Shown: piece after piece, positions 3,921 to 62,528 of the stretch
Layout of the letters: each line of letters opens with the position of its first letter
How positions within the stretch are numbered: position 1 is the stretch's first letter
DNA from: Adineta vaga
Taxonomy: Eukaryota; Animalia; Rotifera
Length of the DNA stretch: 64,000 nucleotides
Assembly: GCA_021613535.1 (NCBI GenBank)
Contig: CP075493.1
Coordinates: forward strand, 16,306,001-16,370,000
Direction of reading: 5' to 3'
The notes under the pieces: model-generated
Told to the model about the DNA's origin: nothing
Databases searched by the model: none
The model's input: the letters and a program-made list of their open reading frames with translations, nothing else
Translations under genes and position numbers: made by a program

Positions 3921-4180
3921 CTAAGGGATCTAAGGAGACTTACAAAATGACGTTTTTGTTATTCTATGATAATTCGTAATTAGTATAGATTTTCCCTTCA
4001 TAATTTAGTTCCCTTGAGAGTGTTCGAAGGGTGATGAGGGCGACATCTCGCTGAGGGTGTTCGGAGGATGATGAAGATGAGATCTCACTGAGGGTGATTT
4101 CATTGGTTTTTATTCAGATACACTAGTTGTAGGAAATGTAATGTTTTATTGTATTCATTGTGAAAGCTGTCCTTTTCTTA

Positions 4181-4800
4181 CGAGGGAACCACCCGAGGTG
4201 TCAAAAAGCTTTTCGGCCGAGATTATGATGGTTAGATAGGCCATAGCTAGGAGTGATCTGCCCTAAGTTAGTTCGTGCCCAAGTTGAGATCCATCTGAGA
4301 TATAGACTTTTTACTAGAATTTGCCTATGGGACCCCAAATTCCCCATAAAATCAAAGTTTTGAATTTTGAGGTGAGATTTTGTCCATATCAAGGCCTCAG
4401 CCAGAGTAGTTCATTCACAAAATTTCAGGATTTTTTGACTAAGCATTCTCGAGATATAATGTTTTCAAATATCTATGAATACAACGATATTTGTAAAAAA
4501 CTATGTTTATGTTAACATACTGAGATCTCGAGAATGCCTAGTCAAAAAATCCTGAAATTTTGTGAATGAACTACTCTGGCTGAGGCCTTGATATGGACAA
4601 AATCTCACCTCAAAATTCAAAACTTTGATTTTATGGGGAATTTGGGGTCCCATAGGCAAATTCTAGTAAAAAGTCTATATCTCAGATGGATCTCAACTTG
4701 GGCACGAACTAACTTAGGGCAGATCACTCCTAGCTATGGCCTATCTAACCATCATAATCTCGACCGAAAAACCTTTTTGACACCTCGGGTGGTTCCCTCG
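4181..4800. mobile_element. Foldback MITE, ~275-bp near-perfect inverted arms around a ~70-bp spacer
   Basis: Arms are 4181-4455 and 4525-4800, with termini CGAGGGAACCACCCGAGG / CCTCGGGTGGTTCCCTCG and TTA on both sides. The same spurious peptide appears on opposite strands in the ORF track. Confidence 0.9.
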
Positions 4801-5523
4801 TTAGTTCCTTTAGTTCATCCTTCAAATAGATATATGAGGGTCGATTTTTTTCTAAAATTCAATTTGAAATATAAAAGACCATAGACTCTTGGACCCTTAG
4901 ACCCTTGGACCCTGAGGCCCGTAGACCCACAGATCTTTAGTATCAGAGTCTTCAAAATTCATTTAGATAAAAATATCCGATTGAGTATATACATTTCTTA
5001 TCATTAATCATCAATTACGGTGATTCAATGGAGATAGTACTGGAATTATATCTGATCATGATGGAATGAAATGATTAAGATCGTGAAAAATAATTTAAAG
5101 ATTGGTGAATCGTGCCACCTATTCATATAGCAGTCACTGTCGTTTATTGAATATGATCAATTGGTTTTTTTACCCGTGTACCCAGGGTTGTGTGAAAAAA
5201 ATGATTGTTCTCTGTCATATAGATCTAATTCAAAATGCATCGCAAATCAGATTTTAGAATTGACATACCTAAAGATATGTGTAGAGTCAAAGTCTCAGCA
5301 ACACATATACTCTTCTCTATATAATCAGACGAATGTGGTACAATCATCTCAGAAAATGCCAACCAACGTCACAGTATCACAAGCCATTGCAATAAATATA
5401 CCATGTTATTAATAATTCCAAACCAATACCACAGAGTTCCACTCAATGAAGTTTTCACCCAGAAACGTTCACCTTTCTTCTTCTCATTAGTCATACTTTC
5501 AAGTGTACACCACTATGTTAACT

Positions 5524-5938
5524 TCAGTATGAAAAACGATCGTTAGTATTTGAGTAGTTGAGCACTGCGAAGAGTCAGAAGACAGACACACACCGGTCAT
5601 GGTAGTTCATGTCTGCATATCACATCATTTCTCACGGATGGTTATTGTTATAAATAGACATTCAGCATTTGAAGTCGTGATGCGACGCTATGCAGACATA
5701 ATCCATCTGGTGAGACCCTTGGACAAGGTCGAAACCGGTAGATTATTTTAAAATCGAAATTGCAAAAGAGGAAACGATAGTAAGATTAAGAGGGGCACAA
5801 ACAACAGATAACTGCATTTCCGAGAACGTTAACTCTATTGATAGCTACGAATCAACAGAAACAGATAGTACAACGACGACTTTAGAACAACAATGCGACA
5901 GGAACAACTATTACGAAAAGCAGAGTCTCAGAGGAGCA
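5524..5938 (+). repeat. ~415-bp hammerhead-containing pLTR-like segment, copy 1
   Basis: Near-identical direct copy at 53723-54136. This copy lies immediately upstream of Athena RT copy A. Confidence 0.9.
5698..5746 (+). ncRNA. Hammerhead ribozyme motif with mutated core (CTGGTGA)
   Basis: ATAATC-cat-CTGGTGA-GACC..GGTC-GAAAC-CGGT-A-GATTAT. The paralogue at 53896 has an intact CTGATGA. Confidence 0.6.
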
Positions 5939-10267: not shown

Positions 10268-11494
10268 CATGAAAACGGCCACGTTTACGGTATGTAAACG
10301 TTCCGTAAACATTTTAAAAACGGCATATTTACGGTATCAATGCGGACCGTTTTGGGTCCTTATCGAACCGTATTCTCGGGCACAGAATTACGGATCGTAA
10401 TGTATCCGTTCAGTAAACGTTCCGTATTTGGTGGTTTTCTGGGAATCTTGAGGGTGTGGGTGTTGGTACTACATCTATCTAATACCCACACCCACACCCA
10501 CACCCACACCCTCAACAAAATTCAGTCATCTAACTAGACTAATCAGCGTCACTTACTTAATTCATCCTTATCAATAATCTAAGTTTTTAAAAAATTTATT
10601 TTAAAAAATCTTACTTTTTTTCAATTAATGATTATATTCTAAAAGTAAACAATAAAATTCATTCGAAAAACTCTTACTGTTCAGTTGATTATTGTAAATA
10701 ATCTAAAAAAGAAAAGAAAATTTATCTAAATAAAATTCTTACTCACTGTTCAATCTGATTTATTTCATCTAAAATTCCATAACCAAAATAACTTTTGCCA
10801 GTAAGGTAATCCACCAATATACTCAGTCGTAATTTAGACTAGAAAATAGATCTTTCGAAATTATATGTGAACGAGAAAAACGAACTGACATAATAAAGAT
10901 GCTTCCTAAAAACATCGAAAGCTGATTATACTGAATGTCTATAGCATATATCTTTTATTTCGTTAGGTATATCTGCCTAGACGGTTGCGGATGTACAAAA
11001 ATATAAAAATCGAAAAATCAAAAAACCAGACGGTTTACTAATATGTATCAAAATTTTATTAATTATTTATTATTTATATATGTATATTCGAATGTTAAGT
11101 CGTGTGTTTAACTATTTATATTTAAATTTTTGTATAGATGGCGCCATAATTTGCACAATATATTAATTACATTTCTGTTTTACTTATCAATCTCTATCTA
11201 TCTAGAAAATTATTTTCATTTTATAAAAAAATAATAATATTGTACAGAAAGTCATATACCGGGATCTGTACCCTTTAAGTAGGTTTTCAGAAAAACGGTC
11301 TAAAAACAGGGCGTAATCTGAGGTCCGTTTTCGGATAGAATTCGGTGCTCCGTAATACGGTCCGTAAACGGTGCGAAAAATATTCGTATTTACACCGTTA
11401 ACTGCTCTCGATATACGAAAAAAGTCGGAGATCCGTTTAGATGCCGGTTTCTATTCGTATACTGTCGTTTTCGGTCCGACTCGTTCTACCTGGG
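10268..11494 (-). mobile_element. Internally deleted, non-autonomous CACTA/EnSpm copy
   Basis: 10268-10444 matches 11510-11695. Parts of ~10515-11494 match ~16975-17674, ending CTACCTGGG. Both genes are missing. Confidence 0.8.
10445..10515. repeat. Telomere-repeat hairpin, copy 1
   Basis: ATCTTGAGGGTGTGGGTGTTGG-TACTACATCTAT-CTAATA-(CCCACA)4-CCCTCAA. Confidence 0.9.
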
Positions 11495-21972: not shown

Positions 21973-22150
21973 TGTGGGTGGGTGTGGGTGTGGGTGTGGG
22001 TGTGGGTGTGGGTGTGGGTGTGGGTATTGGATAGATGTAGTACCAACACCCACACCCACACACCCACACCCACACCCACACCCACACCCACACCCACACC
22101 CACACCCACACCCACACCCACACCCACACCCACACCCACACCCTCAAGAT
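21973..22150. repeat. Telomere-repeat hairpin, copy 2 (expanded arms)
   Basis: ~(TGTGGG)8-TATTGG-ATAGATGTAGTA-CCAACA-~(CCCACA)16-CCCTCAAGAT. Confidence 0.95.
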
Positions 22151-29165: not shown

Positions 29166-29370
29166 TACTTCATATAAGATTTATATTTGAAATTAATATT
29201 GAGAGATTATTTCTTTTTTAGAAATAGTCAATTTAATTTAATTTTGAATTTAATTTTAATTATGTAGATTTCTTATACCATCTGATGATCGACCTATGAA
29301 AATAAGTTGAAACTGGTTATGGTATTTATTTGTTCAAACACACCCACACCCTCAAGATTTAAGCTATTAA

Positions 29371-29413
29371 GCCATCTGATGAGAACTTTAAACAGTTCGA
29401 AACGCGTCATGGC
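29371..29413 (+). ncRNA. Type I hammerhead ribozyme, not linked to an RT ORF
   Basis: GCCAT-CTGATGA-GAACT..AGTTC-GAAAC-GCGT-C-ATGGC; all stems pair. Confidence 0.9.
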
Positions 29414-29429
29414 GACTTGTACTCACCCT

Positions 29430-30580
29430 TATGATAGGAAGATCAAAGTTCTCGAAACTGCTCAGTCGCATAAAGGTCAAGAATATATATGATGATATGA
29501 GATACAGTCATATGACAATGAAATAAAAGAAAAAATTCCTTCTACGCAGTTATCAGACTACAAAAAAAAGACGAAATATTTGTTGTAGTAACAATCAAAA
29601 TCTAGTTCAAATTTAAATCAAACTAGTAAATATTCAAACTTTAATAAAATTTTGATCTATACTATTAACAACGGCCTAGTCGATATTGAAATTTTGATCT
29701 CAATTAGTTCAAATTTAAATATCTTGATCCCAACTAGGACAAGTTAAAACGTTTTATAGTAAAATCTTTGTAGATGATTAAATTAGAGAACTAACTTTGA
29801 GATATGTGAATCTTTGTTTTGACACAACAACATTACTTACAACTTATGTTTAATGCAAAGAAATATTTTCAATCAGTCAAAATCGATGAGTAAGATATAT
29901 TGTACTCAATAAAACCAAAGTTATTTGTGGTTGCTCATTAAGATTTGTATAACATAACTAGAGAATTTCAAAGGATTAAGAATGTTTAAATATGAACTAG
30001 TTGTGATCAAAATTTCAATGTCAACTAGTTCGATTTAATGCTAAACCGAATTTGGACTATTAGTAAGAACAATTTCATCAAAATAAGCTATATGATGGTA
30101 AGAATGAAGCAAAAAGATACGGCAACACTGGTGATAACCGAATGAGAAAAGAAACAACATCATTATGAAATCATAAAAAGAAAACAAAAAACAATATTTC
30201 AAACCGTAGATAAGCGAATCATAAGATAGACAAAGAGGTTTTCACGAGAGAAAAAGAATGACATGATAGGAAGATGAAAGTTCTCGAAATTGCTCAGTTA
30301 CAAACAGCTGAGAATAAGATTGACGAAATAAGATAAAGTCATATGACAAGGTAATAAAAGAAAGAATTGTTTCTATGTAGTTATCAAACTAACATTAAAA
30401 GACGAAATATTTCTCCAAGATAAGTCAGATGATGGTAAGAATGAAGCAAAAAACAAGGTAATACTGATGATAACCGAATGAGAGAAGATGCAATATCATT
30501 ATGAAATTATAAAAAGAAAACAAAAAACATTATTTCAAACAATAGATAAGCTAATAATAAGAGAGAGAGAGAGACAAAGA
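29430..30580 (+). repeat. Two interleaved ~150-bp imperfect direct duplications
   Basis: 29430-29582 resembles 30263-30412 (ATGATAGGAAGAT.AAAGTTCTCGAAA.TGCTCAGT). 30091-30235 resembles 30429-30580 (ATGATGGTAAGAATGAAGCAAAA). Confidence 0.75.
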
Positions 30581-48279: not shown

Positions 48280-48928
48280 TGAAAACAATTGTGGCATTGT
48301 TGAGACATTTTTTCCTGTGTTTCTTTTTGTTTTTACGTTGCGTATTATCATCTTTTCGTAGTCTATTGTTATGTGAAAATAAACTTTTTTCCTAGTCCGA
48401 TCTTTGTTGTTGCTTTTCGTGTACAAATTCTTCACTGAGAGTCCTATACAAATGAGTAGAAGCAGTAGAACTAAGCGGTTGGAATCAGAAGTAAATGAAT
48501 TATCAAGTTGAAACTCATTGTCTACATTTTCTATTGAACAGAAGAAGTATAATCGACAGCATATGTATTATACACGTCATTTGTTCAATAAAAATGATAT
48601 TCTTTCAAAAGATAACTTGATAACTCATTGACTTTTGATTTCAATCGCTTCTTTTTTTATCAAAAACTATTTGTGTGTTTTCTATGATAAATAGTGGACA
48701 TAACTATTTGTCATATATATATATATATACTTTTTTTGTCCGACAAAATCCAACCCTTTACTTCCACGTAGTGTCGGATGGAAACGTTAACATATACAGT
48801 TTGTTAACGGCTAAAAAGGGCTATGGTGTTACTATATCGGTCATAACGATTGATATTGTTGTTGTTGATGAAACAGATGATACTTATTTGTGTTTGTATA
48901 TTGTAGATTAAATCTTCTATTGATCATT

Positions 48929-50563
48929 ATGGAATCTGCTGAAGATAATCAAACAGATAAGAAAGCACAGAAGAGGAATCATCGTGGAACTAGACGACAA
49001 CAACGCTACAGAGCAAAAGCGAAGCTTCTGCAACTATGTGAACTTGCTAGTGCACAAGCTGCAGAACTTATGGAAGTAGAAGAAGAAGAAGATAAACAGA
49101 TGAACAATAGCTTGCAAATGAATTTCTCATTGGTATGTATGTCTATGTTTGAAAGATGTTGTATTTCGAAGATAAAAACATAAAGAACATCATTTTGTAT
49201 TACAGGATGAGCAAAATAATGAAATGGAGAGACAAACAAGAAGAAGAAGAGGAAGATCGAACAAACGACGAATTGAATCGATCATGACGCCGACGATAAT
49301 GACAGAGAATGATGTGATTCAATCATTTAGTCAATTATCGATTATTCCACACGCGGCGGAGAATGTTGCGGTGAAGCGAAGAAGAAGAGCAGCTAAACAT
49401 CGATCATCAAAAAAACATCATCTTGTTCCAAAGCAACAAAGTGATGTATATCTACCGGATTATTTGAATGTTCCAGATCGAATATTCAAGAAAATGTTCA
49501 TATCGGCATCCAAAAGTCTGCATGCTTCTGTTCCATACAATATGATTTGTCGATGGTTAGACAATAGTTCTAATATGCGACATATTCGTGAACATGCTCG
49601 TCTATTAGATAAACTATTGTTTCTACAATTACAACAAGCAATATGGACAGAATATTTTAACATTGGCAGTCTATCAGATGGTGTATGGGCATCTGAAGTA
49701 CAAGAGAAAATCAATCGGCGAATGAAAGATGAATCTATTACTAATATAGATCCATTAACTTTTGTTACTCAATATCGACAAAATATTGAAGAACAATTGC
49801 ATGCAACAGAAAATGATTTAAATATACATTTAAATCATGTGAACTACATTGTTGGAGAAAAATCACAAATGCAGCCGATTGATTTTTCTGTAATATTGAA
49901 GGCATTTGTTCGACGTGGACAACATAAATTAAATGGTGAATTCGAATGTAAAAAACGGCTATTACATTTCGATTATCAAGATCATCTCTTGACGAAAGTT
50001 TTCTTTGATTTGAAACCGACGAAAAGACAGGTATAGTTGCAGACACATTCGAGAGAGACTTCTGTTGAGTATATATTTTCTTACAGATTCGATCGGCTAC
50101 AAAGATTTGGTCTGCTACATTTAAACAACAGATTGCTGAAGAACAAATAATGATACTTAAACATCGTATATCTTCAAGAATATTACCGAAGATATTCGAT
50201 GTATTAGATCATTCATTAGTTGATCTCAATAGAAATCTACAAGATCGCGTGATCGATAATGATATACGTGCGACCATAACAAGTCGCCGTAATAAAGTTA
50301 TTGGTCAATTGAAAGCCGATATGATATCAATGGAGATTTCAATAGCCGAAGCAACAGCACGTGGTCATGCACAAAAAGTTAAACGAGAAAAAGAAGTATT
50401 GCTATCAAATCAATGCTCGCATGATGGAGATGAAGCAATGATTAATAATATGATTAATACTATTCAGGCTCGTCAAGATAATATTATTAAACGAGCACAA
50501 TATGTTACTGCCTGTAAAGTGTCTTTTTTCGACGAAACTCCGGCGATGCTGCTTATGGATTAG
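48929..50563 (+). CDS. Athena/Terminon coiled-coil ORF1 (3 exons)
   Basis: ATG at 48929; introns 49133-49205 and 50031-50086 keep frame. KR-rich motif KRNHRGTRRQQRYRAK, a PDYL motif and a coiled-coil C-terminus ending ..KVSFFDETP.. Confidence 0.8.
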
Positions 50564-50589
50564 AAGGATGGCAACAGCATCGTCGGAGT
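50524..50589 (+). promoter_or_regulatory. Programmed -1 ribosomal frameshift signal
   Basis: Slippery T TTT TTC (50524-50530) in the ORF1 frame, a 6-nt spacer, then a 15-bp stem 50537-50551 / 50575-50589 with one G:U. The -1 frame is closed by TAA at 50515 and open after it into RGPKYVP. Confidence 0.9.
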
Positions 50590-52592
50590 ATAAACATAAA
50601 TCGACTTCCATCATCAGCTATTGTAGAAGTGGCCACGCCACTACAACAAGCACATTTGTTACTTTTGGCACGAGGTCCAAAATATGTTCCAACATGTCAA
50701 AGTTACTTTGCACTTCGTTCCATTAATGATATTATCCATCGTGAATATGAACGAATGTCAAAAGTAATTACGGGATGTTTAACGGACAATTGTATATCTG
50801 CATCAGATGAACGTGCAAAATGATTTCTTATTTCCTTAAAAAATCTCCTGACAGATTTGTGTACAACGAAAGATATTCAACAGAAATTATATCGAACACG
50901 TCAACAAATTGTTCTACGACGAACGGACAAGAGTAAGGTGTTTCACTTGGGTTCATTCAATGATTATGAACAGAAAGCAACACATTATATGATGAAGACA
51001 TGTGCTTATGAAGAAGTCCACAATGGGAAGTGTCCATTAGCTGCTAATTTATCATCGGTGATGGACTTACTCGATAGATTATTGAAAAATAATGCTATTA
51101 ATATAAAACAATGGTCTGCAATGAAACCAAATAGAGATAAAGTGGAACTAGGTCATCTCTATTTCTTGCCTAAGCCTCATAAAGTAAGATGATGTGTGAA
51201 TGTATCTATTTTCGTATTGTTGATGTTTTTTTTTCAATGGTCATATTCTTAGATTGGTACACCATTGCGACCTATTATTTCTTCGATGAATGGGCCGACG
51301 AATAAAATATCCCATTTCTTAGATCATCTTCTTCGACCACTCTTTGATCATGTGGCGAAACAGACGACATTCATCAATGGTATTGATCTTGTCCGACAAT
51401 TAGAAGAATACCAACGAGATGGTCGTCTTTCGATATCAACTCAATTTATTACATTTGATGTCACTGATCTATATACGATGATACCAAGAAATGGGTCATT
51501 GGAAGCATTAGGACGATTCTTAATTAAAACGTCGACAAAAGGCAAAATTGGTAATTTATCTATTGATACGATCTTAAAACTAGCTCGTCTAGTATTAGAT
51601 ACAAATTATTTTGTCTATAATAATAAATATTATCGACAAATTAAAGGTGGTGCAATGGGTTCGGCATTTACGATGACATTGGCCAATGTCTACATGTTAG
51701 AGTGGGAACAACCATTAGTCGAATTGCAAGCACAACAAGGAGAGTTGTATGGAAGGAAGTGTATATTCATGGAGTATTCTATGTCTTCTTTATAGATATA
51801 TCGATGATGTATTCATGACATCGAATATGTCTATTGATAAAATTCGTGCAAAGCTCGATTGGATGAATGAGAAGGATGGTGATCATATACGAATCACTTA
51901 TTCAGTTGGTTTCAAAGTCGAATTTCTCGATGTTCAAATTGAAAATCATCATGGTTCATTGAAGACATCCGTTTATCGTAAACCAGCTATTACCATATTC
52001 ATCTGATCATCCTCGTCATATACATATCAACATACCGTATGAAGCATTGTTACATGCTGCTCGATTATGTTCAGATGTGTATGCATTCGACAAAGAACGA
52101 TTAGACATCGAAATGAAACTTCTATTAAATGGATATCTGCCGAGATTTCTTAATTATAATTTCGATCGATTCTTTCGATTGAATCAGGTGATAGAAGTTC
52201 ATACTCAGTTAGATGTGCAGCAATATCAAACTTTACATCGAAAATTATTATATTTGCCTACACGACGTGAGAAGAAACATCAACGACAGTTAACAGATCA
52301 ACTTAGTGAAAAGTTAGTTGCAAATAATGATGTGGTAACAAAGAAGAAATGGAATAGGAAGATCTTAATGTTACCACATACATTCGAAAGTGGTCCATCG
52401 AAGGATTTCAATCGACAGTTTCGGAAATTATGGACGAAATATTATGGTTACAAAGGATCAGTTGTCAAAGATGTACGTGTCATGATAACAGCATTGACGA
52501 ATCCATCTTTGGATGATCTGTTTGTTCGAAAGAAACCTTCGGCATCACTATTGACCAGAATGGAAGCAACAGACGTTGAACAGTTGATCTGA
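50524..52592 (+). pseudogene. Intron-containing Athena reverse transcriptase, decayed
   Basis: RGPKYVP, RRTDKS, LYFLPKPHK|IGTPLRPII (intron 51184-51252), DVTDLYT, GGAMGS, YGR|YIDD (intron 51756-51795 with damaged donor), FLDV. Stop at 50821 and frameshift near 51988. No GIY-YIG domain. Confidence 0.9.
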
Positions 52593-53430: not shown

Positions 53431-53722
53431 TATTATGTCGATTTAACACCACAGACAAATAATACTTCGTCGAAAAAGTAACTTTTTCTGTTATCGATGA
53501 GTTTTATTTCATTTAATAAAAAGAAAGCTAAGAATAAAGTCGATGACTATTTTTCATTATCTTATATCAAAGGTGAAGATGAGACTTTCCATGGCTATGC
53601 GTAGCCGACCGGTTTCGATGAGAAGTTACTATTTTGCTTTTCCATGTACTTGTCTATTGATCCTTTGAATATTCTTCTCTTATTTTGTGTCGAGGATGAG
53701 AACGTTATTTTTGAATATCTTA

Positions 53723-54136
53723 TCAGTATGAAAAACGATCGTTAGTATTTGAGTAGTTGAGCATTGCGAAGAGTGAGAAGACAGACACACACCGGTCATG
53801 GTAGTTCATGTCTGCATATCACATCATTTCTCTCGAATTCTTTCGTTATAAATAGACATTCAGCATTTGAAGTCGTGATGCGAGGCTATGCAGACATAAT
53901 CCATCTGATGAGACCCTTGGACAAGGTCGAAACCGGTAGATTATTTTAAAATGGAAATTGCAAAAGACGAAACGATAGTAAGATTGAGAGGGGCACAAAC
54001 AACAGATAACTGCATTTCCGAGAACGTGAACTGTATTTACAGCTACGAATCAACAGAAATAGATAGTACAACGATGACTTTAGAACAACAACGCGAGAGG
54101 AACCACTATTACGAAAAGCAGAGTCTCAGCGAAGCA
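53723..54136 (+). repeat. ~415-bp hammerhead-containing pLTR-like segment, copy 2
   Basis: Direct repeat of 5524-5938. Confidence 0.9.
53896..53944 (+). ncRNA. Hammerhead ribozyme motif (GUA cleavage triplet)
   Basis: ATAATC-cat-CTGATGA-GACC..GGTC-GAAAC-CGGT-A-GATTAT. A 3-nt insert separates stem I from the core. Confidence 0.7.
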
Positions 54137-54157
54137 TCAGCTATTCTAATATAACGT

Positions 54158-54251
54158 GATCATGAAAACCAGAACGGTATTCAGCCAATATCCTCAGACC
54201 GGTTATCGGAAGATGTGGGTTCGAGTCCTGCTCTGATTTCATGATCTTTTT
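54158..54251 (+). ncRNA. tRNA-like cloverleaf RNA with extended acceptor stem and T5 terminator
   Basis: Acceptor AACCAGA/TCTGATT, D-like stem GGTATT/AATATC, anticodon-like TCAGA-CCGGTTA-TCGGA and T-arm GTGGG-TTCGAGT-CCTGC. Outer stem GATCATGA/TCATGATC is followed by TTTTT. Confidence 0.65.
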
Positions 54252-54374
54252 AGATAAGTTTTTCGTACTTATTCAAGCATATCTATGTGGATACTTCAAA
54301 TGAATTAGATCGGAATGTATCGTGGACAAATGAAAGGATTTCTAATTAAAGTTTCTTTACAATCCTATTTTCAA

Positions 54375-54440
54375 ACACACCCACCCACACCCACACCCTG
54401 GTACTCGTGACACGTTTACACCCACCCTCATTCTCACCCA
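54375..54440 (+). repeat. C-rich telomere-type repeats after the Terminon-like unit
   Basis: ACACACCCACCCACACCCACACCC..ACACCCACCCTCATTCTCACCC. Confidence 0.75.
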
Positions 54441-54723
54441 AAGTTACCATCATTTTGGCTTGAGCAATCCAAATTACCTCAGGGTACTCTATATCTATTT
54501 GTTATTATTATTTATAATGATTTTTTTCCAATGATAAAATAATTAATATAAAAAACAAATGTGTTTATTAATTTTGTTCTCGCGTATTTACAATAGTTTT
54601 CATATACAATGTCTTAATACCAACATGTCGTACTGCCAAAGGAAAAATTACAGGTTAGGTATCATTAACATCTCAGCATTTAGTCAACATCTGTCCGATA
54701 CCTACACTTTTCCCTTTAATTTT

Positions 54724-57700
54724 CTACAAATAAGTATATATAACTTCATTACAATCAATATCAGTCGTCATCTCTTTGTCTTCAACTAAACGAATAAAGA
54801 TTTGTTCAAGTGTTGGTTGTGTTATTGTAAAAGTTTGAATTAATTTTTCTTCCTTTTTCTTATTAAACCATTGAAATATAAATGATAAATTGGAACGATA
54901 TTCATTTGTTGTATGTTTTGATCTATTTCTTGTTACAAATGGTATAGTACACAATAACATTCCATTACATTGTTCTATGAATAAAAGATTTTTATATTTA
55001 TAACTAAGAATTTCTTAAATTGATTATACTTTGAATTTCTGTTCCAGAAAAAGTAACTAATAATTCTTTTATAAGTTGTTCAATTGATTCAAATGATGAT
55101 TTAACTTGTATACAATATCCATTTCCAAAACGATGTTTTAATCTTTGTAAATTCCCAAGACATATCAGTTGTCCTGATTTCATAATTCCAATTTCTAAAA
55201 TTTAATCATTATTATCTATTTATTAATTTTATGGAAAAAAAACAAAAAGCGAACTTGTACACAATGCTTCACATTCTTCCATACTATATAGATAAAGTTT
55301 AATAAAGAAAAAACAAAAAATTGATTTCTAAACTAAATAGATTTTTTACCTATGACTTGTTAAAATAATTGTTCTATCAAAATGACGCGCTGTTCGAATA
55401 ATATTCCATAATTTTCGTTTCGCAAGTGGATCCAAACCCTATGAGATAAAAAAAAACAAAAATAATTTATTAAAATTCCTAATAAATTTATAATTTCTTA
55501 CTGTTGTTGGTTCATCTAAAAGTACAATCATTGGTTTACCGATGAATGCTAATAATGCACTTATTTTTCGTTTATTTCCACCACTATAAACATGATTACA
55601 AAATCTCTTAATATATCTTTAAGAAAAACTACCTTAGTTCCTCTATTTGTTTATTTTTATATAAATCAAGATCAAATATATTCAACATATGATTACATAA
55701 TTGAGATAATTTTGTCCATTTAAATCCTTTTAATCTAAATAAATAGAAAAATGTGATATAATAAATATATAAAGATTTGATATATTAATAAACCTTGCAA
55801 ATAAAGTTATTGTTTCAATAACAGTTAAATTATTTATAAGCCAATCAAATTGTGGACAATAACCAATATTAATATCTCGTTTCTAAAATAATAAAATTTA
55901 AAAATTTTTAAAATGAAAGATTTATTTGAAAAATATTTAACCATTAAATTAATATTTCTTCTATTAATAAATATATCACCTGATGTTGATTTCAATTCAC
56001 CAGTTAACATTCGAAATATTGTTGTTTTACCAGCACCATTTGCTCCTTTATAGAAAATAAATTATTAACAAACGAAAATAAAATTTTTTTTTATATAAAA
56101 AACCTAATAAACCAAAACATGATTGTTTTGGAACATAAAAATTTAAATGATCAATAACTTTATAAATTTGTCGATGTATTGATTTTTGTTTTCGTTTTTT
56201 AAATTCTTGTAGAAGATCACGAACATAAATAATTGATGAATTTAATACAATATTTTCATTTAATATTAAATCACGTTCATTTCGTACATCTTCATCTAAA
56301 TGCTGTAGAACAAAAATATTGAAAATTAAATCAAATTCTAAATTCAATTTAATAGATGTTAACAACTGAAATTTTGTCTATGAAATATAAATATCCATTA
56401 TACTTTTCGAAAGCTACTGTTTCATTCTAAATATCTTTATTCTTGTTACGAGATTTTTTACATACCGTATCATTCCATTGATTTAATGTTGTTATTTTTA
56501 TTTTCTTATTATTTGAATATTGTTGATAAATTCGTTTAAATAAAATTTGATTTTCAATTAAAATCAAAATAAACCACCAAAATAAAATTTGACCAAAAAA
56601 AATAATAAATAAAATTCCAATTCCTGGTTCATGAATTGACATCCATGAATCATTTAAAGAATAATCAGTAAACATAACTTCATTGATTATAGAAAGACAA
56701 TTTCTATCAGATTTTAAACGAATATTATATAAAGAACGTTTGAAATTTACACATGGAAAAAGTATTGCAATAATCCATGTAATTTTATTCATAATATTTG
56801 ATAAATATATTATATTTGTTGTATTTCTTACTTCTGTTTGTTTAACTACTGAAATAAAATGAAATGTCATATCAATAAAACAAGCAAAAATATTTAGAAT
56901 AAAAAATGTTGTAAAACCAATAAATTGAGATTTTTGAATAAATGAATAAACATATATCATTGGTATTGAAGCTAATGAATACATAAAAATCATTAGAAAA
57001 TAATATCCAATTTGTTCAGTATTTCTATAAATATGAATTTCCGATTGAGAATTTGAATTTATTATTGAACCAATCTAATAAAAAAAAGAAATAATAATAT
57101 TAATCTGAATTATTTGATTTTTTTTACTTTAAGAATAATTGTTAAAATACTTGAAAGTATAAGACATAAACATACATCAAATATAAGATTAGAAAACCAA
57201 TAAAGTTTTTTAGTTAAATTTGTTAATAATTGTAAATCTTTTGAATGATTTAAACGTTCTTCAGTTATTGATATAATAAGAATTCCAATAAACATAATAC
57301 CAATAATACTATCAATAAAATTAAATAATGATAATGGTAATACATCAAAACAATATAAAATATCAAATAAATCTTCAATAAATGTCGTATTCTCTTTTGA
57401 TGTAATTATTGGTTGATTTATTGTTTGAATTTGTTTTTTTGTTGAATTAGAATAATATTGAAATAAATTTGATGTGATTAGATTTAAACTTGTTGGTATT
57501 ATATGAAAATTAACTGTTGAAAAATAAATATTATATATAAAAGAATTTTCTATTGATGTTTTATTGAAATTTATTGAAAATGCCATTTGATATTTATTAA
57601 TAAAAATATCTTCATTAATTAAATACCTATTATGAATATAATCAAGTATATTATCAGTATATATTTCATCAATAATTGTACCAGATTTTGCAATTGAATT

Positions 57701-60700
57701 AATTAAATTTTTATAAATATTACTTTGATAATTATTAGAATAAAGAACAACAGTATGAGGATTATAATTTGATAAATTGAATTTGATTTGAACATCTTTT
57801 TTATGAATATTTTGTGCAAATGTTGATCGAATATCTTCAGATGATGGTAAAAAAATAACAATAAGAATGTGAAATAAAACTGGAAAAATAAAAAATCCAA
57901 GAAGAAAATTATATTGTCGATATAAAATATGCCATCGTTTGATTAAGAGTGCAAATATACGAAAGATAATTAAACGAAGACTTTTTTCATATTCATAATT
58001 ATTATTAAAAACTAAAAAATAAATAATCTTTTTCGAGACGATTCATGCTAATTATTTTTATCTCGAGTTCGAGTCCAAAAAAGTAAATATCAACTTTCTA
58101 CTACCGAAGACTATCAGTATGGCGCAACTAGGTGTAAGGCAAATCAAACATGTATAACTCGAAACTTGAATTCAAGTATTTAAGTATCTGTTCAACTATA
58201 ATTTCATACTCATAAAATTTCTCGCAATGGATATTTTACCCGTGAAATCCAAATGATATGGGATATACAGAGTTTAGCTACTCTGTCAATGGTGTCGGAA
58301 TCGAACGGGTGGATTGAAAGTTTTGCCACAAAATGTTCGTTTACTTTCAACAACAGGATTTTTGACTGTATAGAATTAAAGACGAGAGTTGTCTCTACAG
58401 AATGATAGATAAGAACCAAGAGTTTTAGAATAATCATTCAAGAAAAGTTGAGTTCACTTTGTAAATCGATTTTCCAAAGAAATCGGTACGTGTCACCTAG
58501 TAAAATAATCACTATTAACAGATAATTTGCAGCAGACCAATTCTTAGTAGAGCATTTCACAGAGTAATACCCGCTCTTTCATTCGCTGTATTTAAAATCT
58601 TTTTTAGTACACTGAAGTTTGTTCAAACTTGATTTTAGAGCTTCTAAAAGATTGTCTCATAGCTCTCAAAGCAAAAGTACTATAAATGTTTTGAGCCCAT
58701 ATTCAGAAAGAGAATAAAATTCTGATTTTAACACAACGTTTTAAAATTTGTACAGGCTCTTTTAAGAGACTAAAAAGCAAACGAACATTTTGTGGCAAAA
58801 CTTTCGATCCACCCGTTATATTTTGTCTCTGAAAACTGTCATACTTTGATTAATTTTAAGCTGATTGCATAGAATTGGATTTTCTTGATTTTCACAAATT
58901 AATCTATTTTGAACATAAGAAAAGATTTAATTTTAATTAAAAATTTTCTTTTTTTATACTTTACTTTAGAAAAACATCTTCAATTGTAATCGTTGATAAA
59001 CCATAATTTTCAATTCCAATATTTAATTTTCTCTTATCTAATTCCGATATTAAACGATGAATTTGTTTTGAATTATTTCTTTTTATAGCAAAAATCATTT
59101 CTGCTGATGATTCTCTTTCTAATGTAATATCTGGAATATGTTGCTGAATAAATCTTGTTATAAATTCATTTTTATATTTTTCATTTTTTTCAATGAAAAA
59201 TCGATATTCGAATTCTAAATATTAAAATATATTTGAAGAAACGAAAAAAAAACAAAACAAAACCTATTTGATTTTTGAGAAAACTGGGTGTACCATATGC
59301 TTGAAGATGTCCATTTGTTATAAAAGCAATTCGATCAGATAAAATATCAGCTTCTTCAAGAAAATGTGTTGTTAAAATAATACATTTACCTTCTTCTTTC
59401 ATTTTCTGTATAATATTCCAAATTAAATGACGATTATACGGATCTTTAGAAAAAGAAAATATAATTTTATTATTCCTAAATTTACATTTACCAATTCCCG
59501 TTGTTGGTTCATCAAAAATAAGAATCTATTTACAATATCAAATAAATTTATTAAAAATAAAATTAAAATTAAAAAAAGAAGAATATACTTTTGGATCACC
59601 AATTAATGATATACCAAGAGATAAACGTCTTTTCATACCACCAGACAAATTTTTTGATAATGTATGTCGATCATCATTTAAATTAATCAAATGAAGAATT
59701 TTTTCAATTGATTCTTTCAATATTATTGAATTCATAGAACGCATCTATTATTATATAAAAATTTTAAAAAATAATTTCTATTCTCAATATTTTAACTCAA
59801 ATAATTATTTAAAAGAAAAAAACAAAACATTTTTCTATATATCTCGACCGATTCTTATTACTTAAGCACAACCGAACATTATTATAGCTGTAGTAAATTT
59901 ATAACATACTTTTCCAATTAATTTCAAATGTTCTTCAATGGATAATTCATTATAAAGAATATCTAAAAATAAAATTAACAATATTTGAAAAACAAAACTA
60001 AAATTTCCATATAAATTTTATTTTCAAACCATATTGTGAACAAAATCCTAAGATTTTTCGAATCTTTTCATTAGATATGAAATTATCTAATCCATCAATT
60101 GTAATAGAACCAGATGTTGATTGTAACATTCCTAAAATTTAAAAAAAAAATAAAAATTTTTCTATTTTAAAATCTATTCTTACCAACAAGTAAAAATGTT
60201 ATTGTCGTTTTTCCTGCTCCATTATGTCCTAATAATGAACATACTTCACCTTGATAAAAATTTAATGATAAATTTGATATTGCTATAAAATCTTTATATT
60301 TCTAAAAACAAAACTTTTTTAAAAAAACTTTTCGTTTTTCTTTCCAACAAACTTTTGTTAAATTTGATATTTTTATTAATGGATTGTTCATTTGATTTAT
60401 TGAATTTAATTCAATCCATTGATTATTATTATTATTATTTTCATAAAATTCTTCATTTTTTGATTTAATTGATAAACATTTAAATAAATAATTCCATTTT
60501 TTTGGAATACCAAATTTACCTGGATTAATTCTTTCAATATAAATTGCTAATAAGAAATAAAATCCCGAATAAATTATCATAAAAAGAAGACATAAACCAA
60601 CATATAATTCATATGAAAATAAATTTGAATATAAATGTTTATATGTCATTAATTCAGCTAAAGAATAAAAAAGTCATTTCAAATTATTAAATCAATAATC

Positions 60701-62528
60701 TTACTTCCTTTTCGTTCATATTGTAAAATAACTTGTAAAGAAAATAATAAACCTAAATTTGGAAATAAACATAAAAAATATCGAATACCAACTGAAACAT
60801 CTCGATAAAAATCAATTAAAGTTATTATCCATATAATAAAACTTATTAATTTTGCTAATAATACTAAAAAACAAATAAAAACTTTAAAAAGAAAGAATCA
60901 AATGATTTCTTTTCTAATCGAACCACGTTTAAATAATTGTGCAAAACAAACACTAAATGCTGAAAGTTCAATTGAATAAATAAATAAAATAGTCCAAATT
61001 AATGTCCAATGTGTATTATTAAATATAGCTCGATCAACACTTATCTCTTCTCGTTTAGAACTTGATATTTTCATTAAACTAAAAGCAGTTGTAATTGAAA
61101 TTAATATTAAATAGATTAACATTGATCGACTCATCCATACAAGATTATTTATCCAAGTTTGAAGACCATAAATACGTAAATATTCCTATATTAAATAAAT
61201 AAATAAATAAAATTTTTTTCTGCAAAAATTCAAAATTATTTTTACTTTAGTTTTATTTTCACGTTCTTCAACAATATAACCAATATTTATTATAAATGTT
61301 ATTAAAAATATAATTGATAAATAAATTGGAACAAATGATTCATAAATTGTATTTAATTGATCAGTATAAACTTGTGGACAACCAAAATGATTTAAAAAAA
61401 TCTATTTTTATTTTAAAAAAAAATATAAATAAATATTAATTCAAAATATAATTATACATTTTTTGAAAATAGATTTGTTTGATTTGTAACATATTCTATA
61501 ATTGATATATCAATAGCATATTGAATACCAACAAATCGATTTGTATAATTAACAAAACTATTATTTCCTTTAAATATATATATAATTTGTTATTTTATCG
61601 GATTGATGATGAGTGTTTTTCTTTTACCTTGACAAAAATCTTCGGGTGCTCGTTTCCATAAATATTCATCTTTTGGAATTTTTATCGTTTGTGCACGATA
61701 ATAGAATGGACCATTTCTATATATATATTCGAAAAAAAGATAATAATAATAATACAATTATACATTTCTTACTCTTGCATACGTAAAATATATTGAATTT
61801 CATCAGGTATTATTGATGAATGATTACAAGTATTGAGATTAGTAAAATAAATAAAAGAAAATATTGAAAGTAATGAAAAATTTGATGTTGATGAAAGTGT
61901 TGGATCGGATATATATTGTACTAAAACAAAACAATTTTAAACACTTCTATTTCAGTAAATGAATACTTCATTTGTAAATCTACGATAAATTAATTATCTT
62001 TTTAAGAAAAACTTTCATATATAATGAACTATAACATTATCTACTGTCTCGAAAAATTATATTGATAAATTGGACTAGTTACACGTCTTCTTTTGTATGG
62101 AAAATGAATGTATTTAGTGAATTATATAAATGACATACTTTTATTAGGAAAATCAGATTTAATTCGTCGAAGATTATTCACTGCATTATAAATAATAGTT
62201 TTTGTACATATATTATCTTTAATAAATAATAAGATTTTTATATAAATAAATAAATAAACAAACCTGGATAATAATAAATTGTATCACCTGTTCCATTTGA
62301 TAGTAATGAATCTATTGGATAAAAGCGAGGTATTTGAAAATCAGAATGATATCGACGTTCAAGAATAAAACGCATAGCTGGTAAAAGTCCAATGAATATG
62401 CTTGCTAAGAAAATTTCCATTATTGTACGACCAGGATTTCGTATTGTTAAAAGAAATGTTTTGATAAATAATGATCGAAAATTATTTAAAAACATTGTAC
62501 AATAATTAGATTGATCACGATATTCCAT
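54724..62528 (-). CDS. ABCA-subfamily full ABC transporter, many exons
   Basis: Two TMD-NBD halves. NBD1 has [44 protein letters not shown]2 has [14 protein letters not shown] and GGNKRK. The C-terminus has TQPTLEQIF. Confidence 0.93.
58304..58817. mobile_element. MITE with ~39-bp TIRs inside an ABCA intron
   Basis: AACGGGTGGATTGAAAGTTTTGCCACAAAATGTTCGTTT is the inverse of AAACGAACATTTTGTGGCAAAACTTTCGATCCACCCGTT. Confidence 0.8.

Follow-up and report, generated by a model that had tools for sequence, protein, structure and literature searches.

A tRNA-derived module at the 3' end of a bdelloid Penelope-like element shares a loop palindrome with the element's hammerhead ribozyme

Athena and Terminon elements are Penelope-like elements (PLEs) whose reverse transcriptase (RT) gene contains introns and encodes no endonuclease, and the available portions of the published accounts place a hammerhead ribozyme at their 3' end, immediately before an (ACACCC)n or (TCACCC)n tail (PMC6431247, PMC8557442). 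According to similarly partial texts, PLEs carry minimal type I hammerheads, which work as dimers joined by their palindromic helix III (PMC4209133), PLEs generate inverted copies (PMC3846280), and the role of the hammerhead in PLEs and Terminons is "still a mystery" (PMC7761336). The main text of PMC6431247 and the available part of PMC8557442 make no mention of a tRNA, and the available part of PMC4209133 describes no tRNA loop bearing a palindrome. More broadly, no description of a tRNA-like module in PLEs or Terminons was found in the available portions of these sources and of PMC11722881, PMC5072296, bioRxiv 10.1101/2020.09.15.297952 and 10.64898/2026.07.22.740005.

We analyzed a 64,000-nucleotide stretch of Adineta vaga contig CP075493.1 (the window) and found a tRNA-derived module near the 3' end of a PLE (Table 1). 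The host fits a bdelloid, endonuclease-less element of the Athena/Terminon type: it has a PLE-type RT with introns, no endonuclease domain was seen behind the RT, and its 3' end carries a hammerhead and telomere-complementary repeats in the RT sense, so that RT type, hammerhead and telomere-type tail are the same as in the available descriptions. It differs from them in that the hammerhead does not directly precede the repeats, ~440 nt with the tRNA-derived module and hairpins lying between the two. The three best of 207 RT matches were proteins named from Adineta, while a Pfam scan of the RT pieces gave no match. The RT copy is broken: it has a stop codon in frame near 50821, and its reading frame changes near 51990. 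A T6C run at 50518-50530 (+), where the RT frame overlaps the upstream ORF, is a possible site of programmed frameshifting. The HDV-like ribozyme motif lies 100 nt 5' of the first ATG in the same unit and is likely the unit's 5' boundary; in the portions of the literature searched, we found no description of such a ribozyme paired with a Penelope-like unit in rotifers. At the other end, the summed contig depth of two DNA runs (247 and 193 contigs on 1.3 kb; contig depth is not copy number) drops more than 10-fold after position 54411, just past the telomere-complementary repeats, which marks the 3' end of the element.

The window contains further traces of telomere-type sequence and PLEs, including TGTGGG-type repeats and several Penelope-like RT fragments. 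Near 54400, the element's telomere-repeat end is connected in one contig to the start of a hammerhead across 28 intervening letters, as in a head-to-tail chain. Inverted telomere-repeat arrays at 21973-22147 and 10449-10514 face each other with a short shared spacer and may be scars of fusion or healing, and a long inverted repeat at 4177-4804 has 253-nt arms that are 98% complementary. The minus strand of 54700-62500 holds an intron-split host gene, putatively ABC transporter-like by its Walker-type motifs.

Table 1. Coordinates of the element, its ribozymes and the tRNA-derived module in the window
Feature	Position	Strand	Evidence or remark
HDV-like ribozyme motif	48738..48826	+	Rfam drz-agam-1, 37.1 bits (cut-off 37)
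Upstream ORF exons of the element, intron-split	49176..50560	+	tblastn with bdelloid proteins P0005, P0007
Penelope-like reverse transcriptase, intron-split	50587..52592	+	best matches 83-89% identical, named from Adineta
Probable decayed second module copy	53576..53667	+	model R1, 13.8 bits
415-bp cassette	53723..54136	+	94% identity to window 5524-5938
Type III hammerhead (predicted)	53791..53937	+	unconstrained minimum free energy (MFE) fold is the active fold
5' arm of rod, degraded inverted copy of 54206-54246	54158..54198	+	30/42 identical, 0/5000 shuffles
tRNA-derived module	54167..54239	+	Rfam, ARAGORN on relatives, alignment, folding
Anticodon loop and 3' strand carrying ACCGGU	54198..54209	+	complementary to hammerhead core, 11 bp, one bulge
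T arm / B box	54215..54231	+	GGTTCGAGTCC
T5 run	54247..54251	+	T4 in L001 and L002
Tail of conserved length	54252..54374	+	comparison with L001 and L002
Telomere-complementary (CACACC-type) stretch, element 3' end	54375..54397	+	repeat pattern match

The first-pass annotation had drawn the module as a cloverleaf of unusual make-up, and its description of the parts was largely accurate. The B-box sequence GGTTCGAGTCC is present in the T arm and is the sole match to the pattern used within the 64 kb. The claimed 6-bp D-like stem pairs 54176-81 with 54187-92 with one G.U, the D-loop GG is absent, and position 33 is C as stated; the supposed 8-bp extension of the acceptor arm consists of seven pairs, a bulge and one further pair, and is followed by the T5 run. 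The reported distances of ~215 nt from the hammerhead and ~125 nt to the telomeric repeats are matched by ~217 nt from the end of the core and ~124 nt to the start of the telomere-complementary repeats. What was not confirmed is that this copy folds as a cloverleaf: the predicted MFE structure is a rod at −32.3 kcal/mol, compared with −18.0 kcal/mol for the drawn cloverleaf. Forcing the T arm to form gave −24.1 kcal/mol at best, and the predicted probability (P) of the T stem is 0.00. ARAGORN found no tRNA in the window copy, and its Rfam tRNA score was 15.1 bits (cut-off 29). The anticodon loop CCGGUUA both caps the rod and sits in the Rfam cloverleaf alignment. With a folding z-score of −3.59 for the 94-nt stretch (1 of 200 shuffles equally good) and close relatives elsewhere, the feature is real and beyond chance.

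The earlier conclusion that the RNA is not a translational tRNA is supported. Where a translational tRNA has U33 and a purine at 37, the window copy and both relatives described below have C33 and U37; C33 alone is also present in viral tRNA-Ile. The window copy lacks G18 G19 in the D arm and falls below the Rfam cut-off, whereas the relatives have the GG and exceed the cut-off. The suggestion of a vault-like RNA found no support, vault being absent among the 10 Rfam matches up to E 10. A scan of the window with model R1 revealed no further clear copy, and the probable decayed second copy in Table 1 has E 0.009 in a 741-nt search and E 1.1 in an 84-kb search; it contains a 13-nt exact match to relative L002, the sole match of that length outside the module.

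Relatives were sought with a 28-nt pattern that includes the anticodon loop, which retrieved two metagenome contigs, L001 and L002. Both have a full cloverleaf, are called Thr-GGT by ARAGORN and score 53.2 and 38.9 bits with the Rfam tRNA model; the predicted T-arm probabilities are 0.92 and 1.00, though in their MFE folds the anticodon arm adopts an alternative short hairpin. They share GATC, the T run and a similar tail with the window, and the tail of all three has a CGTGGA..ATGAA motif and a hairpin (54253-54271 in the window) that varies in step. Their telomere repeat is TCACCC, unlike that of the window, which suggests another bdelloid lineage. In the 3' 43 nt of the module, 40-41 positions are identical to the relatives, 28 of these being fixed by the search pattern; outside it, 12 of 15 and 14 of 15 positions agree (acceptor 3' strand and T arm), compared with 36-43 of ~60 (~60%) in the downstream flank. 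Scans of viral and prokaryote sequences for the module gave no match, and no relatives of the RT were found in viral or prokaryote contigs.

Copies of the module are linked to the 415-bp cassette, as the earlier reading had anticipated: contigs bridge the two (X16 record 4; X2 record 15; X3 record 23), these coming from runs that bear the window's own species label. Three contigs join a hammerhead end to the 3' half of the module with other sequence between, and from loose contig ends it can be seen that a canonical D arm is present in part of the copies, while the rest have other rod-like 5' halves. The window type of module, at 9 differences in 144 nt, also occurs in a run labeled as another species; that run further contains, as judged from two pieces of equal length and depth, a contig in which a hammerhead is followed after ~46 nt by the anticodon arm. 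Contigs X16-X20 also cover the module, from runs only guessed to be RNA, which therefore say nothing on expression. The second cassette in the window, at 5524-5938 (+), has a full hammerhead with one core change (CTGGTGA), stops 22 nt before the hairpin without a module and continues into an RT fragment. The close relatives elsewhere support the view that the window copy is not a lone decayed tRNA, and the module is very probably a conserved, element-borne tRNA derivative. The copies fall into two structural classes, a cloverleaf and a rod with an inverted-copy-like D-arm side.

The 5' arm of the rod resembles its own 3' half in inverted orientation. With the acceptor and anticodon stems excluded, the interior of the inverted copy is still identical at 12 of 21 positions (40 of 5000 shuffles as good). 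Applied to the controls, this test was not significant (2626 and 2169 of 5000 shuffles for L001 and L002); the D region of the window copy is also unlike those of the relatives. Since the 5' arm is a degraded inverted copy of the 3' half and the controls are negative, the extra stem and the lost GG most likely stem from a fold-back duplication that replaced the D-arm side. The 6-bp D-like stem of this copy may thus be incidental.

The origin of the tRNA is less clear. Blastn matched the module to tRNA-Ile genes of phages (E 0.7) and to a tRNA-Gly on a plasmid (E 3e-4), the latter similar in the D and T arms but not in the anticodon arm. The two annotated phage tRNA-Ile genes are identical to the module at 47 of 75 and 49 of 73 positions, and both carry C33. 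A follow-up pattern retrieved 14 viral stretches, eight of which are tRNA-Ile(GAU) genes, a match partly built in by the pattern; the viral matches to short Thr-type patterns included no tRNA gene (0 of 21; 5 of 5 and 16 of 16 were other sequence). Viral tRNA-Ile(GAU) genes (L008-L011, L013, L014, L017, L021-L023) have C33 and the anticodon stem of the module, often with the same start of the variable region, but differ at loop positions 35 and 37, have unrelated acceptor stems and lack CCA. Among the viral and plasmid tRNA genes compared, they appear to be the nearest natural match. As both phage genes have C33, this base may be inherited and the changes at 35 and 37 new. We give viral or bacterial tRNA-Ile ancestry an even chance, with a host tRNA as another possible source.

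The hammerhead of the element differs from the one assumed earlier. Unconstrained folding of 53780-53945 gave the active type III conformation at −42.6 kcal/mol (z = −2.20; 6 of 200 shuffles as good), with helix III formed by 53791-96 and 53932-37 (6 bp, palindrome ACCGGU), helix I by 53798-801 and 53901-04 and continued by a long hairpin (100-nt extension), and helix II by 53912-15 and 53925-28; the probabilities of helices III, I and II were 0.98, 0.71 and 0.86. The type III assignment agrees with the core CUGAnGA and GAAA, the NUH triplet, an open helix III and a full substrate strand upstream of the core at 53791-53801; Rfam recovered only the 3' part (Hammerhead_1, 17.5 bits, below the cut-off). 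A type I hammerhead cutting at 53938, the end named in the first-pass annotation, would have a poor helix I and three unpaired bases before the core. The type III fold predicts cleavage after C53797 (GUC), 140 nt further upstream, so neither the 53938 end nor the discrete RNA of 220-310 nt that had been proposed follows; the spacing between hammerhead and tRNA moreover varies, and the joints between them among relatives skip 74-258 nt. Our literature search found no description of a type III hammerhead in Penelope elements of rotifers. The long helix I loop contains TATAAATA at 53847-53854 (+), a possible promoter. Elsewhere in the window, ordinary type I hammerheads with ACGCGT in helix III are found at 29364-29430 (+) and 37864-37790 (−), each with a short telomere-type motif within ~30 nt after it.

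The helix III palindrome recurs in the loop of the module. ACCGGT has seven sites in the 64 kb, four of them in 53608-54203, two in the cassette copy and one elsewhere; in 20,000 simulated first-order Markov sequences, each of 1001 nt, it never occurred more than twice, compared with four times in ~600 nt in the window. Helix III of the hammerhead itself accounts for two of these four, which leaves only two additional sites: the anticodon loop and the decayed upstream copy. The predicted duplex between the anticodon arm and the hammerhead core reaches −14.5 kcal/mol over 11 bp (73 of 5000 shuffles as good) and −18.0 kcal/mol in L001 with its same-type hammerhead, while the arm gives −9.8 and −8.6 kcal/mol with the two ACGCGU-type hammerheads, and viral tRNA-Ile arms give −6.9 to −9.8 kcal/mol with the window hammerhead. 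Among 189 two-change loop variants, the window loop ranks 4 (tied with 3) for this duplex. Segment 53608-53618 of the decayed copy is an exact 11-nt complement of core positions 53927-53937, and in a 700-nt fold the upstream copy is predicted to pair with the core at a probability of 0.68, in a structure more stable than the active fold by 1.3 kcal/mol. All three listed hammerhead-to-tRNA joints begin at 53937/8, beyond the palindrome, and none of them lies at 53933, the exit point of the ACGCGU-type relatives.

We propose that RNA-RNA pairing by the module loop gates cleavage by the hammerhead, a modeled reading to which we assign a probability of roughly 0.4. In this reading, a captured tRNA gene was kept at a set place in the 3' end of a telomere-attaching PLE, and its ACCGGU loop, being exposed, would base-pair with the identical palindrome in the hammerhead core, or with a second copy of the module, and so control self-cleavage. 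In a long transcript, the upstream decayed copy is predicted to sequester the core. With the core paired, the full-length template would be kept; with the core free, the RNA would be cut and a 3' RNA of ~600 nt released. As the hammerhead lies upstream of the telomere-annealing tail, the cut would part the RT-coding body from the priming end, which makes control of cleavage plausible. In its most ambitious form, the proposal holds that a phage-type tRNA-Ile gene was domesticated within one clade of telomeric retroelements in rotifers, that two anticodon-loop changes made it antisense to the hammerhead of the same element, so that it switches the RNA between full-length template and cut product, and that it perhaps also serves RNA dimerization into head-to-tail chains. 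As a whole this is rather unlikely.

Several observations speak against the pairing, an idea formed after the sequences had been seen and tested post hoc. Of 12,794 window segments, 0.38% bind the arm at −14 kcal/mol or better, several of them more strongly than the hammerhead does. In nested-only folding, arm-to-core pairing costs 16 kcal/mol and has a probability near 0, a kissing pseudoknot being outside that model. Some palindrome arises in 20 of 189 two-change variants of the viral Ile loop. A second element end in L001 (2139-2040, −), ~570 nt downstream of the module, has an ACCGGT hammerhead directly before TCACCC repeats and no tRNA. Among 31 contigs from four runs aligned to L001, no difference at loop positions 33-38 reached a share of at least 2% and a single contig differed at position 32; this invariance is not a free test, since the search pattern includes the loop and the alignment favors similar copies. 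Covariation on the three sequences was not significant (165 of 500 shuffles), with the window row misaligned in the acceptor 5' strand. The pairing also leaves the retention of the T arm and acceptor 3' strand unexplained.

Retention of the T-loop sequence, even in the rod form, would be explained by a unit of RNA polymerase III (Pol III), in which the internal A and B boxes of the cloverleaf form would drive transcription of a ~90-nt RNA ending at the T4-5 run, or the B box would bind TFIIIC as a chromatin barrier in subtelomeric chains. An A-box-like match is present in both relatives, the B box is intact, and the T run lies 8 nt behind the acceptor end; the window copy has no A-box match, and the retained anticodon arm is left without a reason. 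The Pol III SINE head suggested earlier agrees with the A box, B box and T4 seen in the cloverleaf relatives and disagrees with the window copy, which has no A box. Copies of a tRNA-derived SINE start at the tRNA head, whereas contig cover here is continuous into the cassette, and the relatives share upstream sequence and so do not begin at the tRNA 5' end, which refutes a SINE-like start of L001 and L002 there. A Pol III transcript ending at the T run would also lack the telomere-complementary tail and hence provide no SINE-like template. A Pol III unit is unlikely as the main role, though it is compatible with gating by the loop, the two not being exclusive.

RNase P and RNase Z read the T arm and the 3' strand of the acceptor, which outside the search pattern are the most strongly retained parts (12-14 of 15 positions), and the first-pass annotation had proposed a processing signal for these enzymes, as in mascRNA, by which one end of the element RNA would be set. 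The T arm is predicted to form in L001 and L002 but to be buried in the rod in the window copy, which weakens the proposal for that copy. In each of the three copies the leader is predicted to pair with the trailer, an arrangement that is unusual for a substrate; an RNase Z cut would take off the priming tail, the spacing to the hammerhead varies, and the retained anticodon loop has no place in it; overall, we consider a processing signal quite improbable. The odds are similarly poor for a cis-recognition fold that is bound by the element's RT, an ORF1 protein or a host tRNA-binding protein and positions the tail for telomere priming. In its favor, sequence is retained rather than fold, and the distance from position 73 to the telomere repeat is 134-136 nt in all three copies compared (134 and 136 nt in L001 and L002, 136 nt in the window); on the other hand, contig joints show the tail to be 32-99 nt shorter in other subfamilies, cloverleaf and rod differ greatly in shape, and the window has hammerhead ends without the module. 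Least probable is a functionless passenger that was acquired in a single event and then passed from one element end to another by gene conversion or template switching: the window element is broken, one in-window cassette lacks the module, and the inverted copies made by PLEs (PMC3846280, available part) could give palindrome clusters mechanically, but a 28-nt exact match survives where the adjoining 60 nt are only ~60% alike, and the 5' rod arm differs from its source strand at 12 of 42 positions, compared with 2-3 of 43 for the 3' half against distant relatives.

The conserved tRNA-derived module, as a putative partner, and a naturally occurring hammerhead of predicted type III, whose core has an exact complement further upstream, offer a small system for testing the role of PLE hammerheads in vitro. 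Penelope-like RTs are sister to telomerase, so what the RNA ends of PLEs need for attachment bears on the origins of telomerase RNA. Should the viral or bacterial ancestry be true, the module would be a horizontally acquired noncoding RNA given a new use in an animal.

Among described RNAs, the module and its hammerhead have partial counterparts in several further systems. Its hammerhead shares the core and the palindromic helix III with the minimal type I ribozymes of PLEs, as described in the available part of the source cited above, and is predicted to differ from those dimers as a type III monomer with its substrate strand upstream. The mascRNA and menRNA are tRNA mimics near the end of a longer RNA, with shrunken D and anticodon arms and a retained acceptor/T fold; the module, too, is a tRNA mimic near an RNA end, but it keeps the anticodon arm and has the T arm predicted buried in one class. 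The heads of tRNA-derived SINEs have A and B boxes, as in the cloverleaf class, and a tail shared with an autonomous element, whereas the module is embedded in the 3' end of an element that encodes an RT, shares upstream sequence with its relatives and is directly followed by a T run. In the dimer initiation loops of retroviruses and the antisense kissing RNAs of plasmids, a 6-nt palindrome in a hairpin loop makes a short loop contact. The loop of the module likewise has a 6-nt palindrome, and a short contact could be extended to a duplex; it differs in its tRNA scaffold and in having, as proposed partner, a ribozyme.
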